A stretch of DNA of 64,000 nucleotides from an uncultured Bacteroidales bacterium (GTDB lineage Bacteria; Bacteroidota; Bacteroidia; Bacteroidales; WCHB1-69). Each line of letters starts with the position of its first letter. The first letter of the stretch is position 1. Positions 983 to 63,600 of this stretch are shown piece after piece. The translations under genes were made by a program, and so were the position numbers. Location: positions 7,954 through 71,953 of the forward strand of contig ONHS01000003.1 in NCBI GenBank assembly GCA_900317715.1. The letters run 5' to 3'. A model generated the notes under the pieces. It did no database searches, was not told the DNA's origin, and saw only the letters and a program-made list of their open reading frames with translations.

Positions 983-1108
983 ACTTAGACTTAGACTTAA
1001 ACTTAGACTTAGACTATTCCCTACTCCCTTCTCCCTATTCCCTAAACCCTAAACCTTAAACCTTAAACCATAAACCTAAAACCAAAACCAAAACCAAAAC
1101 CAAAAACC
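983..1108. repeat. Degenerate short tandem array: ACTTAG hexamers, then TATTCCC/TAAACCC/TAAACCT heptamers, then AAACCA hexamers
   Basis: Read directly from the sequence. It fills the whole mraY/murD-like spacer. TAA recurs at 7-nt spacing on the + strand. Confidence 0.9.
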
Positions 1109-1111
1109 ATT

Positions 1112-2865: not shown

Positions 2866-3010
2866 TATAACCCTCTAACCCTTTAACCTTCTAAACCATA
2901 AACCATAAACCCTAAACCATAAACCCTAAACTCTAAACCCTAAACTCTAAACCCTAAACTCTAAACTAATAACCCTTTAACCGCCTAACCGTCTAACCCC
3001 CTCTCAACCC
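2866..3010. repeat. Degenerate heptamer array (ATAAACC / CTAAACC / CTAAACT family)
   Basis: About 20 consecutive 7-nt units read directly. TAA falls in all three + frames. It fills the ftsW/ABC-F spacer. Confidence 0.92.
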
Positions 3011-7270: not shown

Positions 7271-7275
7271 CAACC

Positions 7276-7340
7276 GTCAAAATCAATATCATAAATCAAA
7301 AGTCATAAGTCAAACGTCAAACGTCATACGTCATACATCT
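7276..7340. repeat. Degenerate heptamer array (GTCAAAC / GTCATAC / GTCATAA family)
   Basis: Read directly. On the complementary strand it reads GTATGAC/GTTTGAC, with TGA at 7-nt spacing. Confidence 0.85.
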
Positions 7341-12413: not shown

Positions 12414-12448
12414 ATTCATCATTCATCATTCTACATTCTTCATTCCGC
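12414..12448. repeat. Degenerate heptamer array (ATTCATC family)
   Basis: Five units: ATTCATC ATTCATC ATTCTAC ATTCTTC ATTCCGC. Confidence 0.85.
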
Positions 12449-12489: not shown

Positions 12490-13209
12490 ATGGATTCCGC
12501 AATGAATACGAACCCGTACTTGTCTCCCAAAATGAAGATGGCTGATGCTATCAATCAGTACCACAGCCTGTTAACCGTGCTCCCGCGACTCGGCATTCCC
12601 CTTGGTTTTGGCGAGAAAAGCATAGAACAGCTCTGCACCGAACAGCACGTTTCGCTGCCGCTCTTCACCCTTATCAGCCGCGTCTATATCCAAACCGACT
12701 ACTACCCCTCCATCGAGGAGCTGAGACAATGTCCCATGAACGACATCCTGCAGTATCTGCAACAATCTCATCAAGACTACTTGGAGAACAAATTTCCTCA
12801 TATCGAGCAGCATTTCAACGCGTTGCTTGAGCCGATGGATAAGAAATACAGCACGCTGATCGTCAATTTCTACAAGGAATTCAAAAAGGAGGTGGTGAAG
12901 CATTTCCAATATGAGGAGAAAGTTGTATTTCCTTATATGCGGCAGATATTATCTGAAAATGAGACAGATAACGGCGAACATCACCACAAATCCGCGTTCC
13001 AACAGCAGCACGATGACATTGAGGACACCCTCAACGACCTCACCAATCTGTTGCTGAAATACATTCCTGCGGAGGTTTCTTCCTCGGAACGTGTTGATAT
13101 GTTGTTAGATATGTACGCGCTTTCCAACGACATCGGGAAGCACGCCATGATGGAAGACCGCATTTTGCTGCCCTATATCCAGTACTTAGAATCTCAGAGC
13201 CATGATTAA
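12490..13209 (+). CDS. Hemerythrin-like (HHE cation-binding, RIC/ScdA-like) domain protein
   Basis: ATG start. Repeated His/Glu/Asp helix motifs (SHQDYLENKFPHIEQH, KHFQYEEKVVFPY, HDDIEDTLNDL, KHAMMEDRILLPY) typical of di-iron hemerythrin-like four-helix bundles. The family assignment is tentative. Confidence 0.6.
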   Translation: MDSAMNTNPYLSPKMKMADAINQYHSLLTVLPRLGIPLGFGEKSIEQLCTEQHVSLPLFTLISRVYIQTDYYPSIEELRQCPMNDILQYLQQSHQDYLENKFPHIEQHFNALLEPMDKKYSTLIVNFYKEFKKEVVKHFQYEEKVVFPYMRQILSENETDNGEHHHKSAFQQQHDDIEDTLNDLTNLLLKYIPAEVSSSERVDMLLDMYALSNDIGKHAMMEDRILLPYIQYLESQSHD

Positions 13210-13792
13210 GATCGCCATTGCTGAACCTTCACAGATGCTGCGCAACGGCCTCGCCGACCTCTTGCGCGACGTGCCCGACACGGAGGTGGTCTTCTCCACG
13301 GACAACCTGAACGCATTGTTTTCCAGAATGCCGGCGTTGCATGCGGACATTCTGATTATCAACCCGTTGCTCTTCGAGTACAGCCACCGCGCCACGCTCC
13401 GCGCCGAATTCGACAACCATCCCGAACTGCGCCTCATCGCTCTCGTCACCTCTTACCTCGAATCCCAGCATCTCCGCCAGTTCTCCGGCATCATCGAACT
13501 CAACGACGACCTCCAGCGCGTGAAATCGACCATCAACCAGGTGGTCAACACCCTCCAATCCGACGGCGACGAACCTGACACCGACCCCCTCTCCGACCGC
13601 GAAAAAGAGGTCCTCATCTGCCTCTCCAAAGGTCTGAAAAACAACGAAATAGCAGATACTCTCAACATCTCCGTCCACACCGTCATCACCCACCGCAAAA
13701 ACATCGTCCGCAAAACCGGCATCAAATCCGTCGCGGCGCTGACGGTATATGCGATATTGAACAATTTGATTGAAGAAAAAGACATCATTTAG
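13202..13792 (+). CDS. LuxR/FixJ-family DNA-binding regulator with a degenerate (pseudo-)receiver domain
   Basis: ATG overlaps the upstream stop by 8 nt (ATGATTAA). C-terminal LuxR HTH (LSDREKEVLICLSKGLKNNEIADTLNISVHTVITHRKNI). The N-terminal REC-like fold lacks the acidic pocket (IAIAEPS instead of DD; ILIINP instead of the phospho-Asp motif). Confidence 0.8.
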   Translation: MIKIAIAEPSQMLRNGLADLLRDVPDTEVVFSTDNLNALFSRMPALHADILIINPLLFEYSHRATLRAEFDNHPELRLIALVTSYLESQHLRQFSGIIELNDDLQRVKSTINQVVNTLQSDGDEPDTDPLSDREKEVLICLSKGLKNNEIADTLNISVHTVITHRKNIVRKTGIKSVAALTVYAILNNLIEEKDII

Positions 13793-13985
13793 TTAGCAGT
13801 TAGCAGTTAGTAGTTAGTAGTTAGCAGTTTATGCCGAAAGAGCCACTATATATTAAACTACTTCCTTGAGCAGCCCCGCTAGGGGCAAGAGCTAGGTAGC
13901 CAGGGGTGAGCGCAGCGAAACCCCTGGGACGGATGACGACGATGACACGATGATGCGATGAATGACGATGATGAATAACGAATAC
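13793..13985 (+). repeat. Structured intergenic repeat (MITE/REP-like), copy A: TTAGCAG/TTAGTAG heptamers, a ~105-nt core with two stem-loops, then a GATGA-rich tail
   Basis: Core 13828-13932 is near-identical to 15944-16046 and, in inverse orientation, similar to 39261-39368. Stem-loops GCCCC-gcta-GGGGC and CCAGGGG-n14-CCCCTGG. Confidence 0.85.
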
Positions 13986-13994
13986 CCAGACAAT

Positions 13995-15914
13995 ATGAAT
14001 AAAATAATCACCCTAATTATCACATTATGCCTCGCGTGGTCGATGGCCACCGCGCAGGCCCCCGACCCCTACGCCGGTTACGACCGCGTGACCCTCTATG
14101 ACAGCATGACCGTGCGCATGGAGGAGAACGGTCTCAGCCACTACCTCAACCATCAGCGTTACAGAGTGTTGAGTGATGTTGGCTGCCGCGACAACAACAC
14201 GATCATCGTCGATTACGACCCGCTGTCAGCCTACTGCGAAATCCGCGACGTGGTCATCTACCGCCACGATGGCACGGAGGAGCACCCCGATTTCATGGTG
14301 TGCGACTACCCTGCCCCCGCCCACATGATCTATTGGGGCGCACGGCAGAAGATGGTCGCCCTCGGTCGCCTCGAAATTGGCGACGAGGTGGAATTCCTCA
14401 CCTACAAGAAAGGGTTTACCTACGCGCTGCTGCAGGGCGAGGACCCCGACGCGAAGTACATTCCGCCCATGCGCGGCCACTTCTACGACATCGTCCCCTT
14501 TTGGAGCAGTCAGCCCGTGAAGGAGAAAGTGTATCAAGTCAGTGTGCTGACCAACAAGAATTTGCAGTACAAGATCTACAACGGGAATCTTGCCGTGAAA
14601 ACCACGAAGGATGGCGACCGCACCCTCTTCACCTTCTCAAGCACGGACTATTTCCCGTTGAAGACCCCGCGCTACACCGTGGCCAACAACGACATTGAGC
14701 CAAAGCTCATCGTGACCACCGCGCAAAATTGGGAGGCTAAGTCGATGTGGTTTTACGGCGTAAACGAAGATTTTGGCAGTTTCGAGGCCACGCCGGAAAT
14801 CCAGGCCAAGGTCAACGAGCTGCTGAAGCCGGCCAAGACCGAAAACGACAGTTTGGACATCCTCACGCACTGGGTGGCCGACAACGTGCGCTACTCCGGC
14901 ATCTCGATGGGCGAAGGCGAGGGATTCACGCTCCACAAGTGCGAGATGACCTTCCGCGACCGCTGTGGTGTCTGCAAGGACAAGGCTGGCATGCTCATCG
15001 GCATGTTGCGGGCGGCGGGCTTCAAGGCCTACGCTGCCATGACGATGGCCGGCGAGCGCATCGAGGACATCCCCGCCGACCAATTCAACCATTGCATCAC
15101 GGTGGTACAGCGTCGCAACGGCAACTACCAACTTTTGGATCCCACGTGGGTTCCGGGCGTGCGCGGCGAACTCTGGTCCAGCGCGGAACAGCAACAGAAC
15201 TACCTGATGGGACTGCCTAAAGGCTCGAAGTTGGGACTTACCCCCGTCTCCGACCCGAAGAACCACTACGTGCGCATGACCGCCCAGACCGAAGTCACCA
15301 AAAAGGGCTCGCTCAAGGGCACCGTCACCATCACCGCCGACCGGCAGAGCGACCGCACCGTGCGCGGTGTCTTCTACGGCTTCCGCACCGAATGGCGACG
15401 CAATGTGGAAGAGATGCTCTATGCGCAGTACCCCAACGCGAAACTCAAAAGCGTGAAATACACCAGCGAGGACGACTACCTCAAACAACCGGTAAGCATC
15501 ACCTACACGTTCGAAATCCCTGACTACGCGATTGTTACGGACAACGAGGTGATCGCCACGCCCTTCCTCGCCAACGGCTTCTACACCTTCGCCATGCGTC
15601 ACCTCTTCTACGACATCAGCTTGGAGAAGCGCGACTACCCCTTCACTGACCGTTGCTCCCGCTACGTCGCCATCAACGAAACGATGAAGGTGCCATCGGG
15701 TTACACCCGCGTGAGCACGCCCCAATCGCAGCAGTTCGTCACCCCAACCATCTCGTTCAAAGGCGGTTACCAAATCGGCTACAACATGGTCACCTTCACC
15801 GAAAACATCACCCTCGGCAAGCGCGTCTATGAGGCTTCCGAATGGCCCTCTTTCCGCAAAGCCGTGCAATGCCAACGAGGGTATATGGGGAATCCGGTGG
15901 TGTTCATCAAATAG
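13995..15914 (+). CDS. Exported DUF3857-like / transglutaminase-like cysteine-peptidase-fold protein
   Basis: The track start at 13962 lies in the GATGA repeat. ATG 13995 gives a signal peptide MNKIITLIITLCLAWSMATA|QAP. Transglutaminase core Cys (GVCKDKAGMLIGMLRAAG), then His (FNHCITV) and Asp (LLDPTW). GC-rich gene. Confidence 0.78.
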   Translation: MNKIITLIITLCLAWSMATAQAPDPYAGYDRVTLYDSMTVRMEENGLSHYLNHQRYRVLSDVGCRDNNTIIVDYDPLSAYCEIRDVVIYRHDGTEEHPDFMVCDYPAPAHMIYWGARQKMVALGRLEIGDEVEFLTYKKGFTYALLQGEDPDAKYIPPMRGHFYDIVPFWSSQPVKEKVYQVSVLTNKNLQYKIYNGNLAVKTTKDGDRTLFTFSSTDYFPLKTPRYTVANNDIEPKLIVTTAQNWEAKSMWFYGVNEDFGSFEATPEIQAKVNELLKPAKTENDSLDILTHWVADNVRYSGISMGEGEGFTLHKCEMTFRDRCGVCKDKAGMLIGMLRAAGFKAYAAMTMAGERIEDIPADQFNHCITVVQRRNGNYQLLDPTWVPGVRGELWSSAEQQQNYLMGLPKGSKLGLTPVSDPKNHYVRMTAQTEVTKKGSLKGTVTITADRQSDRTVRGVFYGFRTEWRRNVEEMLYAQYPNAKLKSVKYTSEDDYLKQPVSITYTFEIPDYAIVTDNEVIATPFLANGFYTFAMRHLFYDISLEKRDYPFTDRCSRYVAINETMKVPSGYTRVSTPQSQQFVTPTISFKGGYQIGYNMVTFTENITLGKRVYEASEWPSFRKAVQCQRGYMGNPVVFIK

Positions 15915-16090
15915 TTAGCAATTAGCAGTTAGTAGTTAGCAGTTCATGCTGAAAGCTCCCACATATATTCAACTACTTCCTTGAGCAGCCCCGCTAGGGG
16001 CAAGAGCTCGGTAGCCAGGGGTGAGCGCAGCGAAACCCCTGGAACGAATGGCGATGATGAAGCGATGAATGATGCGATGAATGACGATAA
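15915..16090 (+). repeat. Structured intergenic repeat, copy B
   Basis: Begins immediately after stop TAG 15912-15914. Same architecture and orientation as copy A. Confidence 0.85.
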
Positions 16091-16165
16091 AATAATTATG
16101 CATTATGAATTACAAATTATGAATTTAATTGTGCATTATGCATTATGAATTATGAATTTATAAAG
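16091..16165. repeat. Degenerate heptamer array (ATTATGA / ATTATGC family)
   Basis: Read directly. TGA at 7-nt spacing on the + strand. Overlaps the spurious TTG/ATG-extended start of the next gene. Confidence 0.85.
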
Positions 16166-17855: not shown

Positions 17856-17920
17856 TCTTCCTCTGGTCTTCCTCTGGTGTAACTCTGGTGTAACTCTGGT
17901 GTTCTCTGGTGTAACTCTGA
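17856..17920. repeat. Tandem 11-mer array (TCTTCCTCTGG x2, TGTAACTCTGG x4 degenerate)
   Basis: Read directly. Starts 10 nt after the stop. Confidence 0.9.
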
Positions 17921-28966: not shown

Positions 28967-29002
28967 TGTTTTGATTTTATTCTATGAACATTCCCCAAAA
29001 GC

Positions 29003-29044
29003 CAACAGCCAAAAGCCAACAGCTAACAGCTAACAGCCAAAGAC
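29003..29044. repeat. Degenerate heptamer array (CAACAGC / TAACAGC; complement TTAGCTG family)
   Basis: Six units read directly. The last ~7 codons and the TAG stop of tex lie inside the array. Confidence 0.85.
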
Positions 29045-31161
29045 AGGCTTATCCGCTTGCGTTCCACCTCAACGCCCTCCACCTTCACCATCACTTGTTG
29101 ATTGAGATGCACGACTTCGTTGGGGTCGGAGATGCGGCGGTCGCTCAACCGACTGATGTGGATAAGACCGTCCTGATGCACACCAATATCGACGAAACAA
29201 CCGAAGTTGGTGATATTCGTAATGATGCCAGGAAGCACCATTCCAGGTGTTAAATCATTGATAGTATGTACGTTCTTGTCAAATTCAAACATCTCGAACT
29301 GAGAGCGCGGGTCACGACCCGGTTTCGCCAACTCCTTCATGATGTCCTCCAAGGTAGGAAGCCCCACTTTGTCTGTGATGTATTTCGTCAAGACGATCTG
29401 CTGTCTAAGTTCCTTGTTTTTAATCAAATCCGCAATGGAGCAGTTCAAGTCCTTCGCCATTTTCTCGACCACCTTATAGCTTTCCGGATGCACTGCGCTA
29501 CCATCCAATGGATTTTCCGCTTCGCGAATGCGCAGGAATCCAGCCGCCTGTTGAAAGGCCTTCGCGCCAAAACGCGGCACCTTCTTCAACCCTTCGCGCG
29601 AAGTAAAAGGACCGTTCTCGTTGCGATAATCGACAATGTTCTGCGCCAGGGCGGGTCCCACACCCGAAACATACGACAGCAGTTGCTTACTGGCCGTGTT
29701 CAACTCCACGCCCACATAGTTCACGCAACTCTCGACGGTCGTTTGCAGACTCTCCTGCAACATCTTTTGGTTCACATCATGCTGGTACTGCCCTACCCCG
29801 ATGGATTTCGGGTCGATTTTCACCAACTCGGCCAGCGGGTCCATCAGTCTGCGACCAATAGATACAGCACCGCGCACGGTCACATCGTAATCCGGAAACT
29901 CCTCGCGCGCCACGGGCGATGCCGAATAGACCGACGCACCGCTCTCGTTCACCATGTATGCTTTCACATCGCGCTCGAACGGAATGTAACGAACGAAATT
30001 CTCCGTCTCCCGTCCTGCGGTACCATTGCCAATAGCTATCGCATCCACTTGATACTGAAGCACTAAGCGTTTCAACTTGTCGGATGCCAACTTATATTGC
30101 CCCACCGGCGGATGCGGGTAAATCGTCTCGTTGTAGAGCAGTTTTCCTTGCGGATTGAGGATGACGACTTTGCAACCCGTGCGGAATCCCGGGTCGATGG
30201 CCAACGTGGTCACCTGTCCCAACGGAGCGGCCAACAGCAGTTGTCGTGCGTTTTTCGTAAACACTGAAATAGCCTCTTTATCAGCCTTTTCCTTGTAGAA
30301 TTTGCGCATTTCCGTCTCCATTTGCGGTTGCAGCAGTCGTTTGTAGCTATCCGTGACAGCCATCCACACCTGCTGCGCCCCGTTGCTGTTGTTCTTGATG
30401 AGACGGTGTTTCAAGTCTGCGAGCGTACGTTCCTCGTCGGGCGCGATATGCAAGCGCAGGATGCCTTCCTCCTCGCCACGAAACATGGCTAAAATGCGGT
30501 GTGACGGGGCCTTGGCGAGCAATTCCTCCGCATTGTAATAGATGCGGTACTTCTCTCCTTCGTCGATTTTGTCCGGAATCTTGCGTGTGGAGATACGGCT
30601 GTAACGCAGAAAGGTGCTGCGCAAACGGGCGCGAACGCCGGTATTCTCGCTGACCAACTCCGCGATGATGTCGCGCGCACCGGCCAGCGCCTCCTCTTCA
30701 GAAGCCACGCCTTTCTCCTCACTGACATACTTGGCCGCCTCGCGTTGCAGATCAATCGGACGTTGCTGCCACAACAGTTTTGCCAACGGCTGCAAACCTT
30801 TCTCGACAGCCACGGTGGCGCGCGTCTTACGTTTGGGCCGATATGGCAGATAGATATCCTCCAGCACACTTATCGTGTCGGCCTGCTCGATTTTCTCGCG
30901 CAGCTCGGGGGTTAATTTCCCTTGTTCTGTAAGAGAATCCAAAATGGCTGCCCTACGCTTGTCCAACTCTAACCATTTGGCATACAGATCTTTAATATCG
31001 CCAATCTGCACCTCGTCCAACGAACCAGTCGCCTCCTTGCGATAACGGGAAATAAAGGGGATGGTGGCACCCGTCTCCAAAAGATTCAAAGTGTTCTGCA
31101 CCTGCTCCTCCGTGAGATTCAAGGCCTGCGCAATCCGTAAAGCGTAATTCTGCTCTGCCAT
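29023..31161 (-). CDS. tex: Tex-like transcription accessory protein (YqgF/HHH/S1 domains)
   Basis: ATG start, 712 aa. N-terminal Tex domain (IPFISRYRKEATG), a YqgF-like core and a C-terminal S1 domain (GMVLPGIITNITNFGCFVDIG). Confidence 0.92.
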   Translation of the reverse strand: MAEQNYALRIAQALNLTEEQVQNTLNLLETGATIPFISRYRKEATGSLDEVQIGDIKDLYAKWLELDKRRAAILDSLTEQGKLTPELREKIEQADTISVLEDIYLPYRPKRKTRATVAVEKGLQPLAKLLWQQRPIDLQREAAKYVSEEKGVASEEEALAGARDIIAELVSENTGVRARLRSTFLRYSRISTRKIPDKIDEGEKYRIYYNAEELLAKAPSHRILAMFRGEEEGILRLHIAPDEERTLADLKHRLIKNNSNGAQQVWMAVTDSYKRLLQPQMETEMRKFYKEKADKEAISVFTKNARQLLLAAPLGQVTTLAIDPGFRTGCKVVILNPQGKLLYNETIYPHPPVGQYKLASDKLKRLVLQYQVDAIAIGNGTAGRETENFVRYIPFERDVKAYMVNESGASVYSASPVAREEFPDYDVTVRGAVSIGRRLMDPLAELVKIDPKSIGVGQYQHDVNQKMLQESLQTTVESCVNYVGVELNTASKQLLSYVSGVGPALAQNIVDYRNENGPFTSREGLKKVPRFGAKAFQQAAGFLRIREAENPLDGSAVHPESYKVVEKMAKDLNCSIADLIKNKELRQQIVLTKYITDKVGLPTLEDIMKELAKPGRDPRSQFEMFEFDKNVHTINDLTPGMVLPGIITNITNFGCFVDIGVHQDGLIHISRLSDRRISDPNEVVHLNQQVMVKVEGVEVERKRISLSLAVSC

Positions 31162-31176
31162 CTTGATTGTTTTTTT

Positions 31177-31325
31177 GACTTATGACGTTGGACGTATGAT
31201 TTTGATTTATGATTTATGACGTTGAAAATATAACTATTTACTCGTAATCTTATCTCAAGTCACACGTCACACGTCACACGTCACACGTCACACGTCATAA
31301 AACACACGTCACACGTCAACGTCTC
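31177..31325. repeat. Two opposed heptamer arrays: GACTTAT/GACGTAT/ATTTATG (31177-31233) and GTCACAC/GTCATAA (31259-31325)
   Basis: Read directly. The GACGTAT family is the reverse complement (by rotation) of the GTCATAC family, giving an imperfect long inverted repeat. Confidence 0.88.
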
Positions 31326-33678: not shown

Positions 33679-34695
33679 TTATTTTTCCAGCTGCGCATTC
33701 TCACGAATGGCTTTCTCGAAATGGGCGATGGCCTCCTCCATTGTGCCGTGGTAGAAAGCACCCGCCGCGTTGGCATGTCCGCCGCCCTCGAAATACTTGC
33801 GGGCGAACAGGTTCACATCCACGATGCCTTTGGAACGGAATGAGACACGGATGCGGTTGTCGCGTTCGGTGAAAAAAGCGGTGTAATGCACGGATCCCAA
33901 TGATAGGCCGTAATTCACAAAACCTTCTGTATCACCGATTTGGAAGCCATTATCCGTCAAATCCTTCTTGGTCAAGTACATATACGAAACGCCAAGTTCC
34001 GGAATCACCTTCAGCCGCTGTGACAGGGCAAGTCCCAGCAATTTCATGCGGCTTTCGGTGTAGTTATCATAGACTTTGCGATGGACGTCCTCGCCGTTCA
34101 CACCCGCCTCGATCAGCTTGCGCAACACCGTATAGGAATCAGGAAAGTCGCAAGTGTAGGACATTGAGCCCGTATCGGTGATGATGCCCACGTAAAGGCA
34201 CTCGGCTATCTCCTTCGAAGGCGTTTTATCGGGAGCGAGGTACTTGTAGAGAAAGTTATATACCAGCTCGGAAGCGGAAGTCGTCAAATGGGTGGAGTAC
34301 ATCACGTCGCACTTGATGTCGGGCTGCACGTGGTGGTCGATGAGCACCTTAAAACCCGGGAACTTGCTGATGGCGTTCTGCAAGTCCTGGCCGGCGCGAT
34401 GCGGCGCGTTCATATCGACGACATACAGCATGTCCGCCTCTTTGATACGCTTTCGCGCCTCGGTGAGATTCTCCTGCGCCACAAGGATATTCTCCGCTCC
34501 AGACATCCATTGTAGGAAATTGGGGAACGGGTTCGGGGATATCACCGAAACGGTGTATCCGTCGTCCTTGAAATAGTGGTACAACGCCAGCGCACTGCCC
34601 AAAGCATCCCCGTCGGGATTGAAGTGGAAAACAATGGCGATTGTCTTCGTATCTTTCAGTGCCACACGCACTTTCTGTATATCCTGCTCTTCCAA
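33679..34695 (-). CDS. nrnA: DHH/DHHA1 phosphoesterase NrnA-like (oligoribonuclease / pAp phosphatase); proposed TTG start
   Basis: Motifs HFNPDGDALGS, VVDMN, IDHH, GGGHANAAGA. The track ORF runs to 34851 through hairpin repeats. A -7 box at 34716-34723 and the in-frame TTG at 34695 give a typical 338-aa protein. Confidence 0.8.
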   Translation of the reverse strand: MEEQDIQKVRVALKDTKTIAIVFHFNPDGDALGSALALYHYFKDDGYTVSVISPNPFPNFLQWMSGAENILVAQENLTEARKRIKEADMLYVVDMNAPHRAGQDLQNAISKFPGFKVLIDHHVQPDIKCDVMYSTHLTTSASELVYNFLYKYLAPDKTPSKEIAECLYVGIITDTGSMSYTCDFPDSYTVLRKLIEAGVNGEDVHRKVYDNYTESRMKLLGLALSQRLKVIPELGVSYMYLTKKDLTDNGFQIGDTEGFVNYGLSLGSVHYTAFFTERDNRIRVSFRSKGIVDVNLFARKYFEGGGHANAAGAFYHGTMEEAIAHFEKAIRENAQLEK

Positions 34696-34715
34696 AGTAT
34701 CAGATTTTGAAAGCG

Positions 34716-34723
34716 CAAAAATA
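34716..34723 (-). promoter_or_regulatory. -7 promoter box TATTTTTG (minus strand) for the nrnA-FKBP operon
   Basis: Exact TAnnTTTG 21 nt upstream of TTG 34695. It lies inside the track's extended ORF. Confidence 0.5.
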
Positions 34724-34777
34724 CGAAAAAAATGGTTTGCCTCTTCATTCTTATTCTTATTTGTATTTGGCGTAGGG

Positions 34778-34854
34778 GACGACGCTTCCAAGCGTCGCAA
34801 AAAAATATCATTCGCTTCCAAGCGTCGCAGGAAAAATTTGCTTCCAAGCATCGC
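34778..34854. repeat. Three tandem ~30-nt units, each carrying a GCGACGCTTGGAAGCG(TC) hairpin (third unit degenerate)
   Basis: Read directly: GACGACGCTTCCAAGCGTCGC / TTCGCTTCCAAGCGTCGC / TTGCTTCCAAGCATCGC at about 30-nt spacing. Confidence 0.85.
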
Positions 34855-34862
34855 AAAACCGC

Positions 34863-39812: not shown

Positions 39813-39862
39813 CACAAGTTTCAGATTTCAAGTTTCAGGTTTCAAGTCACAAGTCACAAGTC
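39813..39862. repeat. Degenerate heptamer array (CACAAGT / TTCAAGT / TTCAGGT)
   Basis: Read directly. The minus strand has TGA at 7-nt spacing immediately after the stop at 39863. Confidence 0.88.
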
Positions 39863-40575: not shown

Positions 40576-40675
40576 GCTGTTGGCCATTAGCTATTAGCTG
40601 TTAGCTGTTAGCTGTTAGCTGTTGGCTGTTGGCTGTAAGCTTCAACTACTAACTACTAACTACTAACTGCTAACT
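40576..40675. repeat. Opposed heptamer arrays: GCTGTTA/GCTATTA x9, then CTACTAA x4-5
   Basis: Read directly. CTACTAA is the reverse complement of TTAGTAG, so the two halves form an imperfect inverted repeat. Confidence 0.9.
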
Positions 40676-40707
40676 AAAAAAAAGCGACCGATTCGAAAAC
40701 CGGTCGC
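40676..40707 (-). terminator. Rho-independent terminator ending the rpoBC-DUF3467 transcription unit
   Basis: Minus strand: GCGACCG-gttttcgaat-CGGTCGC followed by T8. Lies 33 nt after the stop at 40740. Confidence 0.8.
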
Positions 40708-41045: not shown

Positions 41046-41104
41046 TTTCTATATCCTCTTTAATAAGTTATTACTTTAGATAATTGTTATTGTTTAGGAT
41101 TCGA

Positions 41105-41176
41105 GACGTATGACGTATGACTTATGACGTTGGGTTATTCAATACATCATACGTCCTACGTCACACGTCTTACGAC
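41105..41176. repeat. Opposed heptamer arrays: GACGTAT/GACTTAT, then CATACGT/CCTACGT/CACACGT
   Basis: Read directly. The two arms are reverse complements with periodic mismatches. The array abuts the rpoC stop. Confidence 0.88.
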
Positions 41177-52570: not shown

Positions 52571-52690
52571 GCATTTTTTTTAATCAAACCCCCACTGTTG
52601 AAAAAAAAATTTCACTATGGCACGCTTTTTGTAGTAAAAATCGTTAACCATCTGAGAATCAAAACCTAATCTCTTAATCCTCCCACAGAT

Positions 52691-52778
52691 CTTCCATCTT
52701 ACTTCTTCCATCATCCATCTTCCAACATTCATCATTCATCATTCTTCATTATGCATTATGAATTATGAATTATGAATT
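52691..52778. repeat. Opposed heptamer arrays: CTTCCAT/CATTCAT, then CATTATG/AATTATG
   Basis: Read directly. ATGAATT is close to the reverse complement of CATTCAT, giving an imperfect inverted repeat. Confidence 0.88.
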
Positions 52779-52806
52779 AAAAAAGGGACTCCCTTCCGGA
52801 AGTCCC
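52779..52806 (-). terminator. Rho-independent terminator of the OmpA-family gene
   Basis: Minus strand: GGGACTTCC-gg-AAGGGAGTCCC imperfect hairpin followed by T6. Lies 25 nt after the stop at 52831. Confidence 0.7.
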
Positions 52807-54431: not shown

Positions 54432-54677
54432 CTATTTTACGATAACGAATTTAACAGTCTTGATTTCATTTGTACCCGTCAAGATACGACCGAAGTAAGT
54501 ACCTTGTGCCTTGAATCCTTCAATCTTAGTGATCGGAGTCAAATCAGTCACGTGGTTGATAAGAGCACCAGTCACGCTGTAGATGTCGAGGACTGCACCT
54601 TCGAGTTCTTCAGCTGTCAAATCAAGTTCGATAGTGATTTCTTGACGAACATTTGCAGGAACAGGATAAACCTTGAC
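54432..54677 (-). other. T9SS C-terminal sorting domain (CTD) of the giant protein
   Basis: The last 81 aa are VKVYPVPANVRQEITIELDL...LDIYSVTGALI...GTYFGRILTGTNEIKTVKFVIVK. This is the same pattern as the CTD of 7435-9153. Confidence 0.8.
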
Positions 54678-57600
54678 AGTAGAAACTGCATTGAAGTACA
54701 TTTCACAAGTCTTATAGGTAATCATGTTGCCGTTAGCATCTTGTTCAATCAATTCAACTGAATAGAATCCGTTCAGACCACCGATCTCTTGATAGTTAGA
54801 ATAGATAGCGCCAGGAATTGCAACACCATTTCTGTACCACTGGAAGCCCACGAAGGTGTGACCACCGTTGGTTGCAGGATTGTTGTTCACAACCACAACG
54901 TCGTTCCATCTTTGATCCATGATCGGGAGAGAACCACCGAATGCGTAATCACCAGCAAGTACACGTACTACGATGTCGTATGAACAACCATCCACTGTGA
55001 AGACTGCAGTGTAGTCACCAGGAGCAGAAGGAGCTGCGAATGTAGCAGAGTTGTTGCTGATCGTGCCAGCATCTTGTAAACCGTTGTTATAAACCACGGT
55101 GAATGCAGCTTGAGGATTACCGGAAATCATGTTGAAGTGGATGGTCACTTGACCATTGTCATTACAACCTGATTCGAAGAAGTTCTCAGAGAATTCAATT
55201 TCGTTGACGAAGACAGTAGCAATAGCATCTGCAGTGAATGAAGTGTTCTCGCAGTAAGCGTCAGCAACCAAATTAATTCTGTAAGTGGTTTGTTCGCTCG
55301 GAGCGACGAAGATGCTAGCCGTGTTAGCCATTGTAGTAGCAGCAGCAACAACATTACCATTGCCATCAACAACCTCATATTGGAACGGAGCAACACCGGT
55401 GAATGCGATAACGAGTTCAACAGATGCACTAGGATCGTTAGAACAGATTGATGCGCCATCACCACTGGTGAAGGTAGCCGTAGGCAGTTCGTGGATGGTA
55501 ATTGCAGCAGCAACAGCACCAGTATTGGTCAATTGACAACCGCTACCAATGTTACCAACGAAGGTCGGAGTATAGGTGTAAGTACCAGCTTGAGTAGGCA
55601 GATCGTATGAATTGCCACCGAGACCGCCAGACACGTCAGTCGTGTTGCCGTTTTCATCAGTAACAGTCCATTGGATATGACCACCAGTGTAGTAAGCATA
55701 ATCGAATGCACCACCTTGGATAGCAGCCTGCAAGGTAACGAGGTCGCCGATACAACCGTCTAACAGATGTGAGCTGTAAACGTGAACCTCGGTCCAAGAA
55801 GGATTACCAACAACATTCACAACCTCGACGTTAGAGGATTGAGGTTGACAGTTGTAACCAGAAGTTGAAACGACAACCTGATAGCTGTAGTTGCCAACAG
55901 TGTTCAGAGTCTCAGTAATCTGGTTCATAGCAGTGGTGACAGGAGTATTAGAGTGTGCAATGACACCGTTAGAGAGCCAATTGAAGGTCATATTACCGTA
56001 GATGTTGCTGTTCGTCACACCATTGACAGTATTGTTGTAGTTGGTAACAACACCAGTGAGAGTAACAGAACCGCCTTCGCAGATAGCAAGACCATCAGCA
56101 GAGTTCAAAGCCACAACAGGTTGTTCAGCAACTTGGACAGTCACAGGAGCAGACCAAGTAGAAGCGCAACCGAGGTTGTTGTTTTGAGCAACTCTCAAGG
56201 TGTAGGTGTAAGAACCAGCTGCATTGAGAGGTTGTACGAAGGTATTAGCAACAGCGCCTTCAACTTCAATACCGTTGATAGCCCATTGATAGGTGATATC
56301 GCCAGGAATGTTGCTGTTAGCGGTAACGTTTGCAGTCAAAGTGGTGGTACCACCAACACACATTTCAGTGTGGTCAGCAGCGATAGTCACTGTAGGAGCA
56401 GCAACAACTTGAACAGGAGCAGCGATAGTAGCTGTAGCAGAACAAGAAGCGCTTGCATTGGCAGCAGAGACGATAACGCTTGCACTGATTGTACCAACGT
56501 TTGCAATAGAAGCGGTAACAGTGTTAGCATTCACAGCTTGTTGTGTACCGTTGACCGTCCAAACATAGTTGTAAGAACCAACAGGAGCAACGTGAGCGGT
56601 GAAGGTCACTTGACCGTTTGCACATACATAGTTATTATCAGCAGTGATGGTAACTGAAGGAGCAGCCAAGACATTCACTTCGTGAGCCTCAGAAGTTGCG
56701 GTACATCCAGTATTGTCGGCACGAGAGATCGTGACGGTGAAGTAATAAGGAGTAGCAGCATCGTTAGCAGCAACAGAAGGAACGAAGGTAGGAACAGCAG
56801 TGGTCTCAGTACCTTGAGCAGCACCAGTCCAATTCCATACGTAGGTGTAAGCAGCACCTTCAACACCACCAGTGACGAATGCATTCAAGGTGAGGTCACC
56901 GCCTTCACAAACCGTATTAGCACCGTTGATTGTCACAGAAGGACGTGCAACAACATTTGCAGGAACAGTGTTGGAGACAGTTGAACAACCATTGATAGCG
57001 CTGGTCACAACCACATAGTAATCGTAAGAATCACCGAGGAGGAGATCTGAAGTGGAGTATTGTGCAGCATTTGCACCTTGGATAGCAACTGCATTGTCAC
57101 CATTCACAATTCTGTACCATTGATAGCTCAAAACATCACCAGTGATAACATTGTTCACAGTAGCAGTGAGAGTAAGGTTACCACCTTCGCAGACATTGCC
57201 GAAACCAGCGATGTCAACAGTGTAAGAAGGATTGATGCTAACCAGCGTATTGATATTTGCAGAAGCATTGTTAGCGCAACCAATACCGGTTTGAGCGATC
57301 TCAACAGTGTAAACATCATTGTCACCATAGTTGAGAACAGGGATGTTCAGAGTTTGGTTGGTCTCACCATTCATAATAGTACCATTCTTGTACCATTGAT
57401 AAGTGATGTCACCATAACCGCCAGTCACATTAGCCTTGATAGCCGTAGAACCACCGTTACAAACAGTAGTAGCATAACCGTTCACGACAGAGATCGTCAC
57501 GACAGGATCAGCAACAATGCTGTAGTTGACAGGATCAGAAGTGGATTGACAACCATAGTTAGAGGTGACAGTCACCCAGTATGAGTAGTTGCCAGCAGCA

Positions 57601-60600
57601 TCCTCAGAAGAAGTGGTGAATGAAGGAGTATTAGCAACAAACTCAGTAGTAGTATTCGTATTTCTATACCATTCGTAAGTGTAACCATTCAGACCGTTCA
57701 CACCTGCAACACCACCGTCAACAACTGCGGTGAGAGTAGCGGTACCGCCAACACAAGTGATGTCATTGCTAATAGTAGCAGTAACAACAGGATCAGCAAC
57801 AACCGTGATAGCAGGAGCAGCAGCAGTCACGTTACAACCAGGATTAGCAGTAACAACCACAGTGAAGTTGTAAGCAGTTTCGCGAGCAACCTCAGCAACA
57901 GTGTAATCAGCGCTGTTAGCACCGAGGATCACAGCATTGTCCTTATACCATTGATAGCTATAAGCAGCGAGAGGAGTAACATTTGCATGTAAGGTGGTAG
58001 AACCGCCATCGCAAATGGTAGTATTACCCTCAACAGTAACAGCCACAACAGGAGTAGGAACAACCGTCACGATTGCATCAGCAGAAGCAGATGAAGTACA
58101 ACCAGACATCGGCACGATTGCAGTTGCAGTGTAAACGTAGATGGTAGCGTCACCATCAACCGTGACAGGAGACTCGGTCAGAGTAGCCTGATGAGCGTCA
58201 GAGATGACAACACCATTTCTAGTCCATTCGTAAGAAGCACCCGCAACAGCGTTAGAGACAGCCAAAGTAACTTGACCACCGTCGCAAATCGTAGCGTTAT
58301 CAACGGTTACGACAGGAGTAGCAGGAACTGCATTCACAGTGATATTGATAGTATCCGTAGCAACACAACCAGAGGTGCTTTGAGAAGCCGTCACGATGAA
58401 GGTCTCAACACCAGCGGTGGTAGCATTGAAGGTATAAGCAGAACCTTGGAAACCATTGTTCCAGTTGTAGTTCACATCGCTATTGTTCCAACCGGTAACT
58501 TCAGCAGTGATAACGGTAGTACCGCCAACACAGATTTCAGTCTCGGTAGCAGTGAGCTGCATTTGAGGAGCCTCAGCAACAGTTACGTCGTAAGACATAG
58601 ACTCAGTTGAACAAATACCAGAAACCGTAGCAACAACCTTATAAGAACCAGCTGCGGTAACAGTGATATGATCAGCAGTAGGAACATTGTTCATAGCAAC
58701 ACCATCCTTGTACCAAGCGTAGGTGATGGCAGAAGCAGGAGCGGTTGCCGTAACATTTGCATACAGAGTGGTGTTACCACCGTCGCAGAAGTTATTGACA
58801 CCAGAGATGACAACAGACTCAGGAGCGGAGATACCAACATAGTAAGCATAAACGATACGACCATTGTACATAGCGTACGGTAATGCACGTTCAGATACAC
58901 AACCTTCTTCGCTGGTAACAGTAGCAGAGAGATAGTGAAGACCTTCTTCTGCATTGAAGATGATTTGAGCAGTATTCATACCAGGAAGTTCGAAACCATC
59001 CATGTACCAAGTCACTTGCATGTTATCAGTGCCCTGAGCAATGATAGCTGCAATTTGAGAACCAGTACAGATAGAATCAGCAGAAACAACCACGATAGGA
59101 GTAGCAGGACGAGGATTGACGTTGATCGTAATCTCACCAACAGCTTGACATGTGCCAGCAGCGTTAGTAACAGTTGCAGTCACAGTGTAAGTGGTGGTGG
59201 TATCAGGTTGTACGTCGATCGTAGTAGCGTGGCTACCAGTTGACCATACGAATTCAACATTGCCAACCCAACCATTTTGCTCAACAGAGAGAGTGGTATG
59301 TTCACCTTCACAGATGTTAGTAGCAGTAGCGCTCACGAGAACTTGAGTACCGAATGCTTCAACCGTGAAGTTATCAGAAGTCATAGAGCAACCTTCTGCA
59401 GTTTCGAGGGTCACGTTGTAAACGCCAGCCTCAACCACATGGGTAGCACCGACAGTACCGTCGTTCCAAGTGAAGGTACCTTCAACATCAGAATGAGCGG
59501 TCAAAACAGTAGAATCATTTTGACAAATGACATTGTTACCTGTGATAGTCACAGTGGTAGGAGCAGGAGTGACAACCACAGCAGGAGCAGCAACAGCATC
59601 TGCAGAGACGCATTGTTCATTGCTGATAGCCTTGACAGAGTAGTTGTAAACACCAGCCTCATTGAAGTTAACCGTAAGAACTGCTTGGTTCTCACCAGCG
59701 ATCACATGACCGTTGTTGTACCAAATGTAAGCAGTAGCGGTTGAATCAGCCGTAGCGGTGAAGGTCACCTGCTGACCTTGGCAGATAACAGTATCAGAAA
59801 CTGTCACAGCAGTAATAACAGGCAGCGGGTTAACAACGATGGTAACCTGACCCTCAGCGGTACAAGAACCGTTGTTGTTGGTAACAGTAGCAGTCACATG
59901 ATAAGTGGTGGTAGCAGCAGGAGTGACATCAACCGTAGAAGCGGTGCTGTTGCCAGCCTGAGCATCCCATTGATAAGTCACATTGCCTTGCCAACCTTCT
60001 TGGTCAACAAACAGAGTGGTATGTTCGCCCTGACAAATAGCGGTAGCAGAAGCGCTCACCAAGATGTCAGTACCGAAGGACTCAACAGTGAAAGGTTCAG
60101 AAGTCATTTCACAAGCCTCTTCCTCAGTGGTGCTAACCGTTACAGTGTAAACGCCAGCAGGAACCTTGATAGAAGACTCGTGAGAACCGTTAGACCAAGT
60201 AATGATACCCTCAACATCAGAGGAAACGGTCAAAACAGTGCTGTCACCCTCGCAAATCACATTGTTACCAGTGATAGTAACTGATGTAGGAGCAGGATTG
60301 ATCGTAACCATAGCTTCAGGAGACATCGCAGAAACACAACCTGAACCCGGGAAGGTAACGATAGCGCTATAATAATTGGTCGTCACATGATTGTCAGTGG
60401 TGAAGACATTCTCAGTGAAGATAGGCAGATGTGCACCTTCGATTTCGAAGCCATTTCTGTACCAAGTGTAGACACCTGCTTCGTCATTGTCTTGGTCAGT
60501 AGAAGCAGCCACGATAACTTGAGCGCCGTTACAAACAACGTCGTCAACTGCGATAACTTCAGTAATCACAGGAACAGGAGCAACATTGATGATAATCTCG

Positions 60601-63600
60601 TCATTAGCGGAACAAGTAGAGTGGGTTTGGAATACATCAACACCGATGATGGTAGTATCAGTAAGTGTAGTAGTATAAGTAGGTGAAGTAGCACCAGGGA
60701 TGTAGTAACGATATTGAACAACGCTAGTGTCATACAAGAAGTGTTCATAATCGTTATAAGCAGGATCATAATCGTAAGCGCTGATAACTTGTTGTTCGCG
60801 GATTTCATACCAATGATAGGTAAGGTTCTCAGCATTGTAATCATCCAAGTTAGCAGTCAAAGTAACTTCACCATTAGTACAGATGTTGGTTTCAGTAGCT
60901 GTGATGTTCACAACAGGTTGAGTGAAGACATAAACGAGGTATTCCTCAGAATGTGCTTGACAACCGTCTGCGATATCGTCACGCCATACGTCAACAGTGA
61001 ATCTGTAAGGTTCGTCGCGAGGATACAGATACTCAGCGAAGAAGTTGTTATCGCCAAGGTTGTAACCCATATTATCTCTGATTTGGCCAGATTCGTACCA
61101 AGTGTAGTGCAGATGACCCACATTGTAACCAACAGTGTCAACATTTGCAATCAAGAATACAGAATCGGTTTCGCAGACGAATTGATCGCCAGTGATTTGA
61201 GGTCTAGGATTCGGGTAAACGATAACAGGAGTCGTGGTAGAAACAGGAAGTGAAGTACAACCAGCTTCAGGGAAGGTCACCATAGCGGTGTAGTTGTATT
61301 GTTGAACATTATTGTCGATGATAGCAGGAGTATCGAAGATAGTACTTGCAACAGCACCTTCTAACACATGACCATTTCTGAACCAAGTGAAAATACCGTC
61401 GGTACGATCGCTGTTAACAGTAGCGGTAACGGTGATTTGTGAACCGTAACAAATATTCTGAGCAGAAGTGGTAACTGAAGTGATAACAGGGATAGCGTTA
61501 ACAACAACAGGAAGTTCGTTAGAAGTAGCAATACAACCAGAGGTGAGTTGTTCAACAACCAAAGTGTAGTTGTGAGTACGAACACCTTGAGGAACGTAAG
61601 TGTAGCTCATACGAGTTGCACCAGGAATAGCAACATTGTTGTCATACCATTGGAAGGTGAGCATATCTTCATTCCAATCAGCGAGAGCAGCAGTAAGAGT
61701 AATCTCACCACCTTCGCAGATGTTGTTCTCAGTAACATTGATTGTCACAACAGGATTAGCGTTGACATAAACGAGAGCTTCGCTGGTAGCGCTGCAACCA
61801 TATTCGTTCTCGATAGAAACGCTGAAGCTGTAAGGATAATCTCTATAAGGTCTGCTAATAGAAATGGTATCATTAGTAGTTTGAGCAAACATATCATTGT
61901 TTTCGAACCACTTATACTGAACACCCGTAGGAACAGAAGGATAGAGATTAGCTACAAGAGTAATGTTGTTAATAGTATCAACACAAACGATAGGATCGGT
62001 AACGAGTTCAACAACAGGATTCGGGTTAACCGTGAATCTATTCATCAACTTCACGTCAGACTCACAACCAGGCTCGTCTTGTGCAACAGAAACAGCGTAA
62101 ACATATTGAGTAGGTTCATTGTTGAGAGCGGAAACAACCTCAGTAAAGGTAGGAGCGGTTGCACCCTCGATGACAGCACCATTACGATACCAAGTGTAAA
62201 CAGGATTGTTGTTCACACCACCAGTAACGTTAGCAGTCAACACAACTTGATAACCGTCACAAACAACATTTTCAGTAGGAATGTTGTTAGAAATTGAAGT
62301 AACAACAGGATCAGCAACGACATTTACATTCAAAGTGTCAGAAGTACCAACACAACCAGAGGTGAGTTGATTAACAACGAATGTATAATTGTGGTTACCT
62401 TCTGCAGGAGCATAAGTGTAGCTCAAAGTAGTTGCATTAGAAATAGCAACACCATTGTCAAACCATTGATAGGTGAGTTCATCTGCATTCCAATCAGCGA
62501 GAGCAGCAGTCAAAGTGATTTCACCACCGTTACAGAGGAGGGTATCAGTAACTGCAATGTTCACGACAGGAGCAGCATTCACATAAACCAAAGCATCAAC
62601 ATGTGAAACGCAACCGTATTCGTTTACGAGTTCAACTGCGAAGCTGTAAGGATAATCTCTGTAAGGTTTCGTGAAGTAATAAACGCTATCCATCGTTTGC
62701 GCAACGAGAGCATTGTCTTCAAACCACTTGTAAGAAATAGCAGTAGCAGGCATCGGATCAACATTTGCATAAAGAGCAATATTGTTAGTATCCTCAACAC
62801 AGACAATAGGATCAGTAACAAGTGCGATAGAAGGATTCGGGTAAACAACAACTGCATGGTCGAAGGTGAAGACTTCAGATTCGCAACCAGAAGCGGATTG
62901 TTGAACCTTAACAGCATATACATAGCTTGTAGGCTCATTGTCAATAGCGACAGGAGCATCAACTAAGATATATTCGTTGGAGTTTTCGATAACTTCACCG
63001 TTGCGGTACCAAGTGTAAACCTCGCCACCATCAACACCGCCGCTGATAATATCAGCAACCATGGTAACAGTTCTGCCTTCGCAGATGGTATCATTACCAC
63101 CTAAGTCGTTAACAGCGGTAACAACAGGAATATCGTTGACAACAACGCGGAAAGTATCGTAAGCAACACAGTATTCAGTGTTGACATCCATCAGGTGAGA
63201 AACCATCACGATATAGTCGGTGGTGCGAGCGGGCTCGAAGGTCTCAATCTCATGAGTAGCACCGAGGATACGGTTTTGGTTGGTAGCACTGTTCTTGAAC
63301 CATTGATAAGTTAACATCGGATCATTGTAGTTCTCCAAGTTTGCACGAAGAGTAACTTCACCACCTTGACAAATCTCGTTGGCATCGCCAGTGATATGAG
63401 TGTAAGGTCTGGTATAGACATTAACTTCGAAAGGAGCAGAAATGGTAGTACAACCATCGCCATTGGTAACTTCAACCGTGTAGATATAAGGATTCAAATA
63501 AGTAGGAACCATCTTCTCTGCATAGTTGTTATCCCAACCTGCGATATTGTCTCTGCGTTGGCCGCTCTCATACCAAGTATAAGTAGCGTCAGGATCAGCA

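Follow-up and report, generated by a model that had tools for sequence, protein, structure and literature searches.

The window analysed here is a stretch of 64,000 nucleotides from an uncultured rumen Bacteroidales bacterium (GCA_900317715.1, contig ONHS01000003.1, positions 7,954 to 71,953), and forms one part of an assembly of 3.14 Mb in 138 contigs. It contains tandem arrays of 7-nt units (heptamers) at the boundaries of several genes. The array under study lies on the minus strand at 28995..29044 (28995-29041 in the period-7 call made by Tandem Repeats Finder, TRF), where it takes up the greater part of the 56-nt spacer separating tex, which encodes an S1-domain transcription accessory protein (29023..31161, minus strand), from the next gene (start 28966). 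Read on the tex coding strand, its units are, in order, TCTTTGG, CTGTTAG twice, CTGTTGG, CTTTTGG, CTGTTGG and CTTTTGG. As the initial annotation of the window had noticed, the 3′ end of tex lies inside the array, which encodes both the TAG stop codon (29023-29025) and the last five codons (LAVSC). The same annotation had proposed that heptamer arrays place stop codons in all three frames directly behind genes and may act as frame-independent translational stop pads. The tex array does not behave in this way, since it contains two TAGs alone, both from CTGTTAG variants, and stops two frames. Its consensus unit CTGTTGG (reverse complement CCAACAG), which belongs to the AACAGCC family of 62 arrays, has no stop codon on either strand. 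Beyond the tex TAG the in-frame register meets no further stop for more than 100 nt, and it is non-repeat sequence that closes the other two frames, at +38 and +43. The RNA structure predicted for the array is no better than that of shuffled sequences (z = −0.55). It has no inverted partner in the 56-nt spacer and is not an arm of a PF05635 hairpin element of the kind described below.

By comparing orthologues we asked how the arrays relate to the C-termini of the proteins that they follow. All 18 of the 18 same-genus tex orthologues end 3–5 residues past RKRISL(A/S). The two closest relatives shown, L002 and L003, are 93–94% identical to the Tex protein overall and 93–96% over the C-terminal segment compared, and end in LERS* and LEKG*, respectively; LEKE* is also found among close relatives. 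The tex spacer of L003 is free of arrays, and in L002 no array is present at the tex stop. Since same-genus orthologues, including close ones without an array at the tex stop, end differently, the array must have replaced the last four tex codons and lengthened the protein by one residue in this genome. The idea that arrays alter C-termini thus holds for tex, whose tail (last 4–5 codons) was rewritten, but not for the GerE/LuxR and DUF3857 genes, whose C-termini predate the arrays. The GerE/LuxR gene (13202-13792, plus strand) is followed by 5.6 copies of TTAGCAG/TTAGTAG (13790..13829), which begin on its TAG. Its C-terminus (...EEKDII*) is identical in 18 other species, with or without an array and whatever the family; the stop is followed, depending on the species, by TTAGCAG, TGTAGAA, TGATGAA or TTMAGAA arrays, and by non-repeat sequence in distant species. 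The DUF3857/transglutaminase gene (13962-15914, plus strand) likewise ends on the TAG that begins a TTAGCAG-type array of 4.6 copies (15912..15944). Here the C-terminus (...NPVVFIK*) is kept in all close species, and the stop codon is TAG in 13/13 species with the TTAGCAG array and TAA in 4/4 without it. The copy number of this array varies from 1.5 to 6 among species, and one species has a GGCAATA array at the same place. The initial annotation was accurate in describing both stops (13790-13792 and 15912-15914) as TAGs heading TTAGCAG/TTAGTAG units, and at both genes all frames are stopped within 15 nt. Judged by these comparisons, arrays start on pre-existing stop codons and assimilate them, and a few codons are rewritten only occasionally.

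For the genome as a whole, open reading frames (ORFs) were picked by our own hexamer log-odds model, giving 2470 genes and 86% coding sequence; the main figures were unchanged after restriction to the well-supported genes (n = 1885). Among 2250 TRF rows, 958 have period 7, 350 have period 14 and 237 have period 21, and the period-7 excess is far above chance. There are 928 non-redundant period-7 arrays, which occupy 40.5 kb or 1.29% of the genome and consist of head-to-tail 7-nt units, mostly in 4–10 copies per array. They belong to 99 unit families, which reduce to about 5 superfamilies distinguished by hypervariable bases at one or two places in the unit. Runs of G are few in the units, whose composition is A/T-rich (A 34%, T 30%, G 17%, C 20%). 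Apart from 46 arrays inside called genes, all lie between genes, at densities per kb of 2.9 in co-directional, 2.1 in convergent and 1.1 in divergent spacers. Array starts have a sharp maximum at −3 to +3 nt relative to the upstream stop codon, and 285 of the 1885 well-supported genes (15%) have an array on the stop or at most 3 nt past it. The called ORF end is overlapped by 181 co-directional arrays, about half of them by 6–29 nt; most ORF-end overlaps concern the stop codon alone (offsets −1 to −5).

The stop codon of a gene tends to match the unit that abuts it. It is TAG in 58/66 genes with TTAGCAG arrays and TAA in 33/40 with AATTCAT arrays, and it is also TAG in 16/21 genes abutted by arrays of CTGTTGG, a stop-free family. 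As a result TAG makes up 48% of the stop codons of array-abutted genes and 22% of those of other genes, and the genome total of 25.7% is unusually high, inflated by the repeats. For annotation this means that roughly every seventh gene of this lineage has a stop that touches or lies within a hypervariable repeat, that stop-codon usage is distorted, that the last codons can be repeat-derived and that longest-ORF starts are set by arrays.

We then scored the orientation of the arrays relative to the strand of the upstream gene. In co-directional spacers it is not random, in agreement with the initial annotation: units with stops on the sense strand only outnumber those with stops on the antisense strand only by 160 to 87 (p = 4e-6), with a further 320 arrays having a stop in the unit on both strands and 72 on neither. 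However, this bias is explicable without a stop function. It is limited to arrays that overlap the stop or lie within 30 nt of it, the sense-only to antisense-only ratio being 54:17 for arrays overlapping the stop, 48:19 at 0–30 nt and 69:61 beyond 30 nt. For the overlapping arrays a bias is expected by ascertainment, since an ORF by definition ends at the first stop of the array. The claim that, in every case in the window, the stop-containing orientation is on the coding strand of the preceding gene did not survive counting, because among 17 co-directional arrays all-frame stops are present on the sense strand in 11 and on the antisense strand also in 11. Stop-free families, whose rarity would be expected of a stop function, are a minority of units and yet common (AACAGCC alone has 62 arrays). 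No stop is present in the sense unit of 25% of co-directional arrays and on either strand of 11%, and all-frame coding-strand stops are found in 66–77% of stop-proximal arrays, the tex array with its two stopped frames being outside this fraction.

When composition is taken into account, the stop content of the arrays proves symmetric around gene ends. Units bearing a stop make up about 65–75% on either strand and in every type of spacer. Near stop codons, relative to exact permutation expectations, stops are enriched 1.43–1.45-fold on the sense strand and 1.43–1.48-fold on the antisense strand. For the strand running outward from a gene, which at start codons is the untranslated antisense strand, stop-bearing units amount to 75% of start-adjacent arrays (n = 133) and to 73% of arrays 0–10 nt past stops (n = 139; Fisher p = 0.68). 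Thus we found no stop excess specific to translated contexts, start and stop boundaries being equal and both strands being equal near stops. Stops are also not singled out among trinucleotides, as they are enriched 1.4–1.5-fold in arrays and AGC, CCC, AAC, GTT and others are enriched equally or more. Conservation of the stop positions was considered as a signal of selection and set aside: mismatches are found at 5.5% of stop positions and 8.7% of positions elsewhere, but stop-free families likewise have five invariant and two variable positions. In the AACAGCC/AATAGCC superfamily, to which the tex array belongs, the stop-making base is the most variable position.

What does distinguish the two ends of a spacer is base composition. 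From the stop side to the start side of a spacer, G on the sense strand falls from 24% to 6–8% and C rises from 12% to 27–31%. On the coding strand of stop-proximal arrays G exceeds C in 269 cases and the reverse holds in 70, and on the outward strand the ratio is similar at stop boundaries (103:33) and start boundaries (109:23). Convergent (68:13) and divergent (27:7) spacers follow the same rule. It is therefore dyad-symmetric: whichever gene boundary one starts from, the strand that reads 5′ to 3′ into the spacer is G/T-rich (about 80%). One and the same double-stranded family is accordingly placed in two orientations, with AGCAGTT at a median of −2 nt from the stop and AACTGCT at 95 nt; similarly, AGGGTTT is found near stops and AAACCCT 7 nt from starts. 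In conflict families, whose stops are spelled by the C-rich strand, orientation follows the G rule over the stop rule by 15:6, and in concordant families the ratio is 68:6. G/T-rich units can spell TAG, TGA and TAA, whereas their A/C-rich complements can spell TAA only, and the coding-strand stop surplus near gene ends arises in part because this polarity gives more stop spellings. The rule thus concerns strand, and not stops or G-quadruplexes.

A possible source of this polarity was seen where arrays are paired. Adjacent arrays in the same spacer form 38 inverted pairs, which are separated by little sequence and predicted to fold into strong hairpins, and 7 direct ones. If the 5′ arm of a hairpin is G-rich and its 3′ arm C-rich, the element reads alike on both strands, and so would yield the observed polarity in any spacer. 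Searching the genome for PF05635 (23S rRNA intervening-sequence protein, a four-helix bundle) returned six genes, five of which are bracketed by inverted arrays, each of a separate family (ACCCTCG, ACGTATG/ACACGTC, AATGATG, AATTATG and TTAGCAG). These five loci lie outside the window, on other contigs of the assembly (C28:19503-19817, C121:5016-5333, C73:70153-70464, C85:53618-53935 and C55:32529-32840 of genome G000). The paralogues are 22–52% identical, and the closest pair has the closest heptamers. PF05635 homologues elsewhere in the order are bracketed likewise, by GCAGTTA/CTAACTG in genome G313, by AATGAAT-type arms in G223, and by GATTTAC/TAAATCG and AAGGCAG/TTCTGCC in G036; about half of the bracketing families in these three genomes are stop-free. 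The arrangement resembles ORF-bearing rRNA intervening-sequence elements in having a PF05635 gene in the loop of a long stem (5/6 here), but differs in that the stems are inverted heptamer arrays and lie between protein genes and not in 23S rRNA. Our literature search found no paper linking PF05635 with heptamer repeats. It is conceivable, though we regard it as rather unlikely, that each heptamer family is the cis-sequence of a hairpin element with a cognate PF05635 gene, that gene-less hairpins and single boundary arrays are derivatives of it, and that families with a stop on the outward strand spread best, docking on stop codons without extending the protein. If true, this would explain both the unit-matched stop codons and the residual 1.3–1.5-fold excess of stop-bearing units discussed below, and a link between heptamers and PF05635 would offer a way into the question of how bacterial heptamer repeats arose, which has long lacked an explanation.

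Taken as a whole, the data are probably best explained by hypervariable heptanucleotide repeats of a known prokaryotic class, similar to long simple sequence repeats (LSSRs) and to the short tandemly repeated repetitive (STRR) sequences of cyanobacteria, which lie flush on gene boundaries with a fixed polarity and whose all-frame stops are a by-product. Any unit of 7 nt containing TAA, TAG or TGA would give stops in three frames by arithmetic, and the extra coding-strand stops near gene ends would come from ORFs ending at the first array stop together with the G/T-rich polarity. A gene's stop codon is in many cases supplied by the stop trinucleotide of the first unit itself, and sometimes, as in tex, the array also encodes the last few codons. 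Many arrays may be arms, either paired or orphaned, of repeat elements of the hairpin type, some of which carry PF05635 genes, with units then presumably gained and lost by slippage. What we observe directly, and rely on here, is the abundance, position and polarity of the arrays, the composition-corrected symmetry of their stop content, the conserved C-termini and the unit-matched stop codons. Several points weigh against this explanation. Stop-bearing units amount to 75% on the sense and 64% on the antisense strand, compared with 48% expected from composition and 34% in non-array spacer 7-mers, and this roughly 1.3–1.5-fold excess, present on both strands and in all spacer types, is left unaccounted for by a simple by-product. 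More than 30 nt from the stop, enrichment is 1.6–1.7 on the sense strand and 1.25 on the antisense strand. Paired arms are inverted copies of each other, so the equality of start and stop boundaries leaves room for selection acting on whole families. About 86 of the 928 arrays are in recognisable inverted pairs, and the status of the rest as orphan arms is something we infer. Moreover, gene ends come from our own hexamer-based ORF caller and starts are longest-ORF guesses, so that start-side distances and inward-strand values are biased. The stop excess is itself weakened by the small number of superfamilies (about 5), as a result of which array counts are not independent.

Three other explanations were weighed against that of polar repeats with incidental stops. 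If the arrays were dedicated stop pads, selected to stop ribosomes in any frame and so curb read-through, reduce the products of frameshifting and keep translation from running on into the next cistron, one would expect the raw bias of 160:87 and its concentration within 30 nt of stops, the 1.3–1.5-fold surplus of stop-bearing units over composition, the peak of array starts exactly at stop codons and an orientation rule that is stricter in concordant than in conflict families (68:6 versus 15:6). One would not expect equal enrichment on the antisense strand near stops, nor the 75% versus 73% of stop-bearing units on the untranslated outward strand at starts, with divergent spacers alike, nor an enrichment of AGC, AAC and GTT that equals or exceeds that of stops. 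The tex array stops two frames only, a quarter of arrays (25%) lack sense stops altogether, and about 84 arrays begin at or past a terminator-like hairpin and T-run, including those behind the DUF3467 and OmpA-family genes. A shifted ribosome could get to the gene end from only 5–7% of coding positions because of off-frame stops inside genes. The stop-free GGGAATC repeats of other bacteria share the placement rule (PMC4692102), and the descent of the families from about 5 superfamilies makes the favourable counts interdependent. We therefore consider stop pads very improbable, and an attractive function is thereby removed as unsupported. The alternative in the initial annotation, by which arrays define gene ends, is borne out to a small extent. 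Tandem or back-up stop codons past genes, with which such pads might be compared, are single in-frame codons under weak selection that would curtail read-through products, unlike the arrays here, which span 30–140 nt, are just as rich in stops on untranslated strands and in many cases lie behind terminators.

That alternative, in its full form, has arrays landing in or growing into gene 3′ ends, replacing the C-terminus and supplying a new stop. The array-encoded LAVSC* of tex, compared with LEKG*, LEKE* or LERS* in close relatives, is what it predicts, as are the 181 co-directional arrays that overlap ORF ends, about half of them by 6–29 nt, and a stop type that follows the unit even for stop-free CTGTTGG (TAG in 16/21). 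However, the LuxR and DUF3857 C-termini are the same with or without arrays and across families, most overlaps touch the stop codon only (−1 to −5), and even in tex the shift in length is one residue. The net effect is a cosmetic change of the last codon or codons and no redefinition of genes, and we regard this as a possible but unlikely general account. It is likewise possible but unlikely that the arrays are kept as cis elements in mRNA, supplying a G-poor, unstructured leader for initiation independent of the Shine–Dalgarno sequence (SD) on the start side and, on the stop side, 3′ ends that are G/U-rich or form hairpins and serve termination, processing or stability, perhaps bound by OB-fold proteins, one per heptamer, with stops again incidental. 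The sense-strand G content of 6–8% beside start codons would suit such a leader, in a class of bacteria, the Bacteroidia, in which initiation is tuned by mRNA structure without SD (PMC6847099). CspB binds heptamer repeats at a ratio of one protein to each unit, and for the TAACTGA repeats described below S1, Csp and CsrA have been proposed as binders (PMC4679880). Strong hairpins do form from inverted pairs after genes, for example after rpoC. On the other hand, the polarity is mathematically the same as a strand-symmetric rule on DNA and does not alone indicate RNA, and arrays and terminator-like hairpins are independent of each other: an association or avoidance between the two was looked for and rejected, with 92 co-occurrences against about 95 expected.

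The density of period-7 arrays is 3.05 per 10 kb here. At the loci of same-genus and other close relatives (DUF3857 protein 88–95% identical) it is 1.1–2.1; it drops to 0.26 where protein identity is about 65%, and to about 0.1 in still more distant relatives. Presence and copy number vary among close relatives, as seen in the copies behind DUF3857, the families behind LuxR and the absence of the tex array. Of the 301 genomes sampled from the order, 5 contain four tandem copies of TTAGCAG. Since this unit is rare while a reversed control unit (GACGATT ×4) is abundant in other genomes (148 matches in G036 and 38 in G298), the heptamer families are lineage-specific, and other Bacteroidales lineages have dominant families of their own.

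The repeat class, its all-frame stops and its placement rule have already been published, and what is new here is a very repeat-rich member with other units. Heptamers are the commonest long simple sequence repeat in prokaryotes, and they are proposed to have arisen by slippage (Mrazek, Guo and Shah 2007, as summarised in PMC4679880). The arrays here are like the prokaryotic heptanucleotide LSSRs in that 7-nt tandem units dominate, are mostly intergenic and occur sporadically among lineages (PMC4679880), and unlike the LSSRs described before in comprising 928 arrays of about 100 unit families with gene-boundary anchoring and strict strand polarity. Rehm et al. 2015 described GGGAATC repeats in Xanthomonas and GGGGA(T/C)T repeats in Nostoc PCC 7120 that lie 0–50 nt from the stop codon and in some cases overlap it; the G-rich strand is the coding strand after stops and the non-coding strand before starts, and inverted tandem pairs occur (PMC4692102). 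The arrays here share the placement and strand rule of these repeats, whose units are stop-free on both strands (PMC4692102), but the units of Rehm et al. 2015 are prone to form G-quadruplexes, whereas those here are A/T-rich, not G-quadruplex-forming, of many families and mostly stop-containing. The published rule of G-rich after a stop and C-rich before a start is thus extended to A/T-rich, stop-containing families in Bacteroidales. MacGregor 2015 reported TAACTGA repeats in marine Beggiatoaceae, cyanobacteria and five Bacteroidetes, where forward repeats stop all three frames and 13 sets extend over the upstream gene's stop codon; other heptamer repeats are found in spacers of the Bacteroidetes Gramella and Aequorivita (PMC4679880), and Paludibacter belongs to the Bacteroidales. 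Unlike the arrays here, the TAACTGA system has a single dominant unit, lies mostly just upstream of starts and was read as a regulator-binding site (PMC4679880). Neither TAACTGA ×2, on either strand, nor tandems of GGGAATC or GGGGAYT occur in this genome. The cyanobacterial STRR sequences of Mazel et al. 1990 reportedly comprise several intergenic tandem heptamer families at high copy in one lineage, with function unknown. They would resemble the present arrays in consisting of multiple intergenic tandem heptamer families and differ in phylum and in units, and three STRR units looked for as tandems are absent from this genome.

The remaining arrays of the window illustrate both the rule and its exceptions, and the gene names given to their neighbours (mraY, ftsW, GerE/LuxR, DUF3857, FKBP, DUF3467, rpoC and OmpA) agree with Pfam. 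All-frame stops do follow ftsW, FKBP, the gene ending at 39863 and rpoC, as the initial annotation had said, with three frames stopped within 20–42 nt downstream. Past ftsW (end 2863) the arrays of TAACCCTC and CTAAACC (10.9 copies) run from 2868 to 3002 on the plus strand and reach the next start (3017); their mRNA strand has no G, and TAA is present in three frames within 20 nt. In the FKBP-tex spacer (31195..31323, minus strand) GTGTGAC ×9.4, which is G/T-rich and contains TGA, follows the FKBP stop (31326), and G-free AATCATA ×3.7 precedes the tex start, giving a gradient from G-rich past the stop to G-poor ahead of the start. TGACTTG and AAACTTG arrays (39815..39862, minus strand) abut the stop of the gene ending at 39863 and have TGA in three frames within 32 nt. 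Directly past the rpoC stop (41177, minus strand) lies an inverted pair of heptamer arrays (GACGTRT... / ...ACGTCAT; 41098..41176) predicted to form a 79-nt hairpin with a minimum free energy of −36 kcal/mol (z = −6.0; 0/200 shuffles fold as well) and without a T-run. This hairpin could be a processing or termination structure closing the rpoBC operon.

Elsewhere the description of all-frame stops behind genes holds in part or not at all. Past mraY (end 976) a compound repeat block (983..1110, plus strand) consists of ACTTAG ×5.5, CTACTCC, CCCTAAA ×7 and AAACCA. The first of these is a hexamer that has TAG in a single frame and cannot cycle frames, but the CCCTAAA units do stop the other frames at +73 and +80. 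The arrays of the DUF3467 and OmpA-family genes are located downstream as described, but begin 64 and 50 nt past the stop, behind a hairpin and T-run terminator. For DUF3467 (stop 40740) these are AGTAGTT ×4.7 followed by TAACAGC ×9.4 (40576..40676, minus strand), which follow the terminator hairpin gtggcgaccggttttcgaatcggtcgc-ttttttt, and for the OmpA-family gene (stop 52831) they are TCATAAT, AATGATG and GGATGAT arrays (52689..52779, minus strand) behind a terminator-like hairpin. A counter-example absent from the list in the initial annotation is provided by the GTCATAA/GTCATAC-type arrays (7271..7336, plus strand) past an amino-acid-kinase gene (end 7270), which have sense stops in 2 frames only within the array. 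At start codons, an AATTATG array of 9.6 copies (16094..16158, plus strand), which stops both strands in three frames, overlaps the longest-ORF start (16145) of the next gene. The spacer that contains an ATTCATC array (12414..12445) is divergent and has no 3′ end of a gene nearby, and therefore arrays are not confined to gene ends.

Other repeats were noted in passing. The plant-type telomere repeat, AAACCCT/TTTAGGG, is among the most abundant families of the genome, with 62 intergenic arrays that are short and lie at a median of 7 nt upstream of starts (in the window at 1040-1089 and 2891-2966). A GC-rich hairpin-forming dispersed element (for example cttccttgagcagccccgctaggggcaagagctnggtagccaggggtgagcgcagcgaaacccctgg) is found behind many arrays, in the window at 13850-13935 and 15965-16050 and also in L002 and L021-L036; it is found again, with variant forms, in the corresponding spacers of related species and has the look of repetitive extragenic palindromic sequences or miniature inverted-repeat transposable elements. 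We considered whether a TTAGCAG array is the head of a fixed mobile element (array, TTTATGCCGAAAA... and GC hairpin) and rejected this, as the motif follows 2 of 160 arrays and the downstream sequences are heterogeneous. The period of tandem repeats in the window is not always 7, since an 11-nt repeat (CTCTGGTGTTA ×5.5) lies past the second DUF3857-type gene at 17861-17919, and a 30-nt repeat (CGCTTCCAAGCGTCGCAAAAAAATATATT ×2.7) at 34783-34858 crosses the start region of the gene at 33679-34851 (minus strand). Finally, a giant ORF of 3877 amino acids occupies 54432-63998 on the minus strand and extends past the end of the window.

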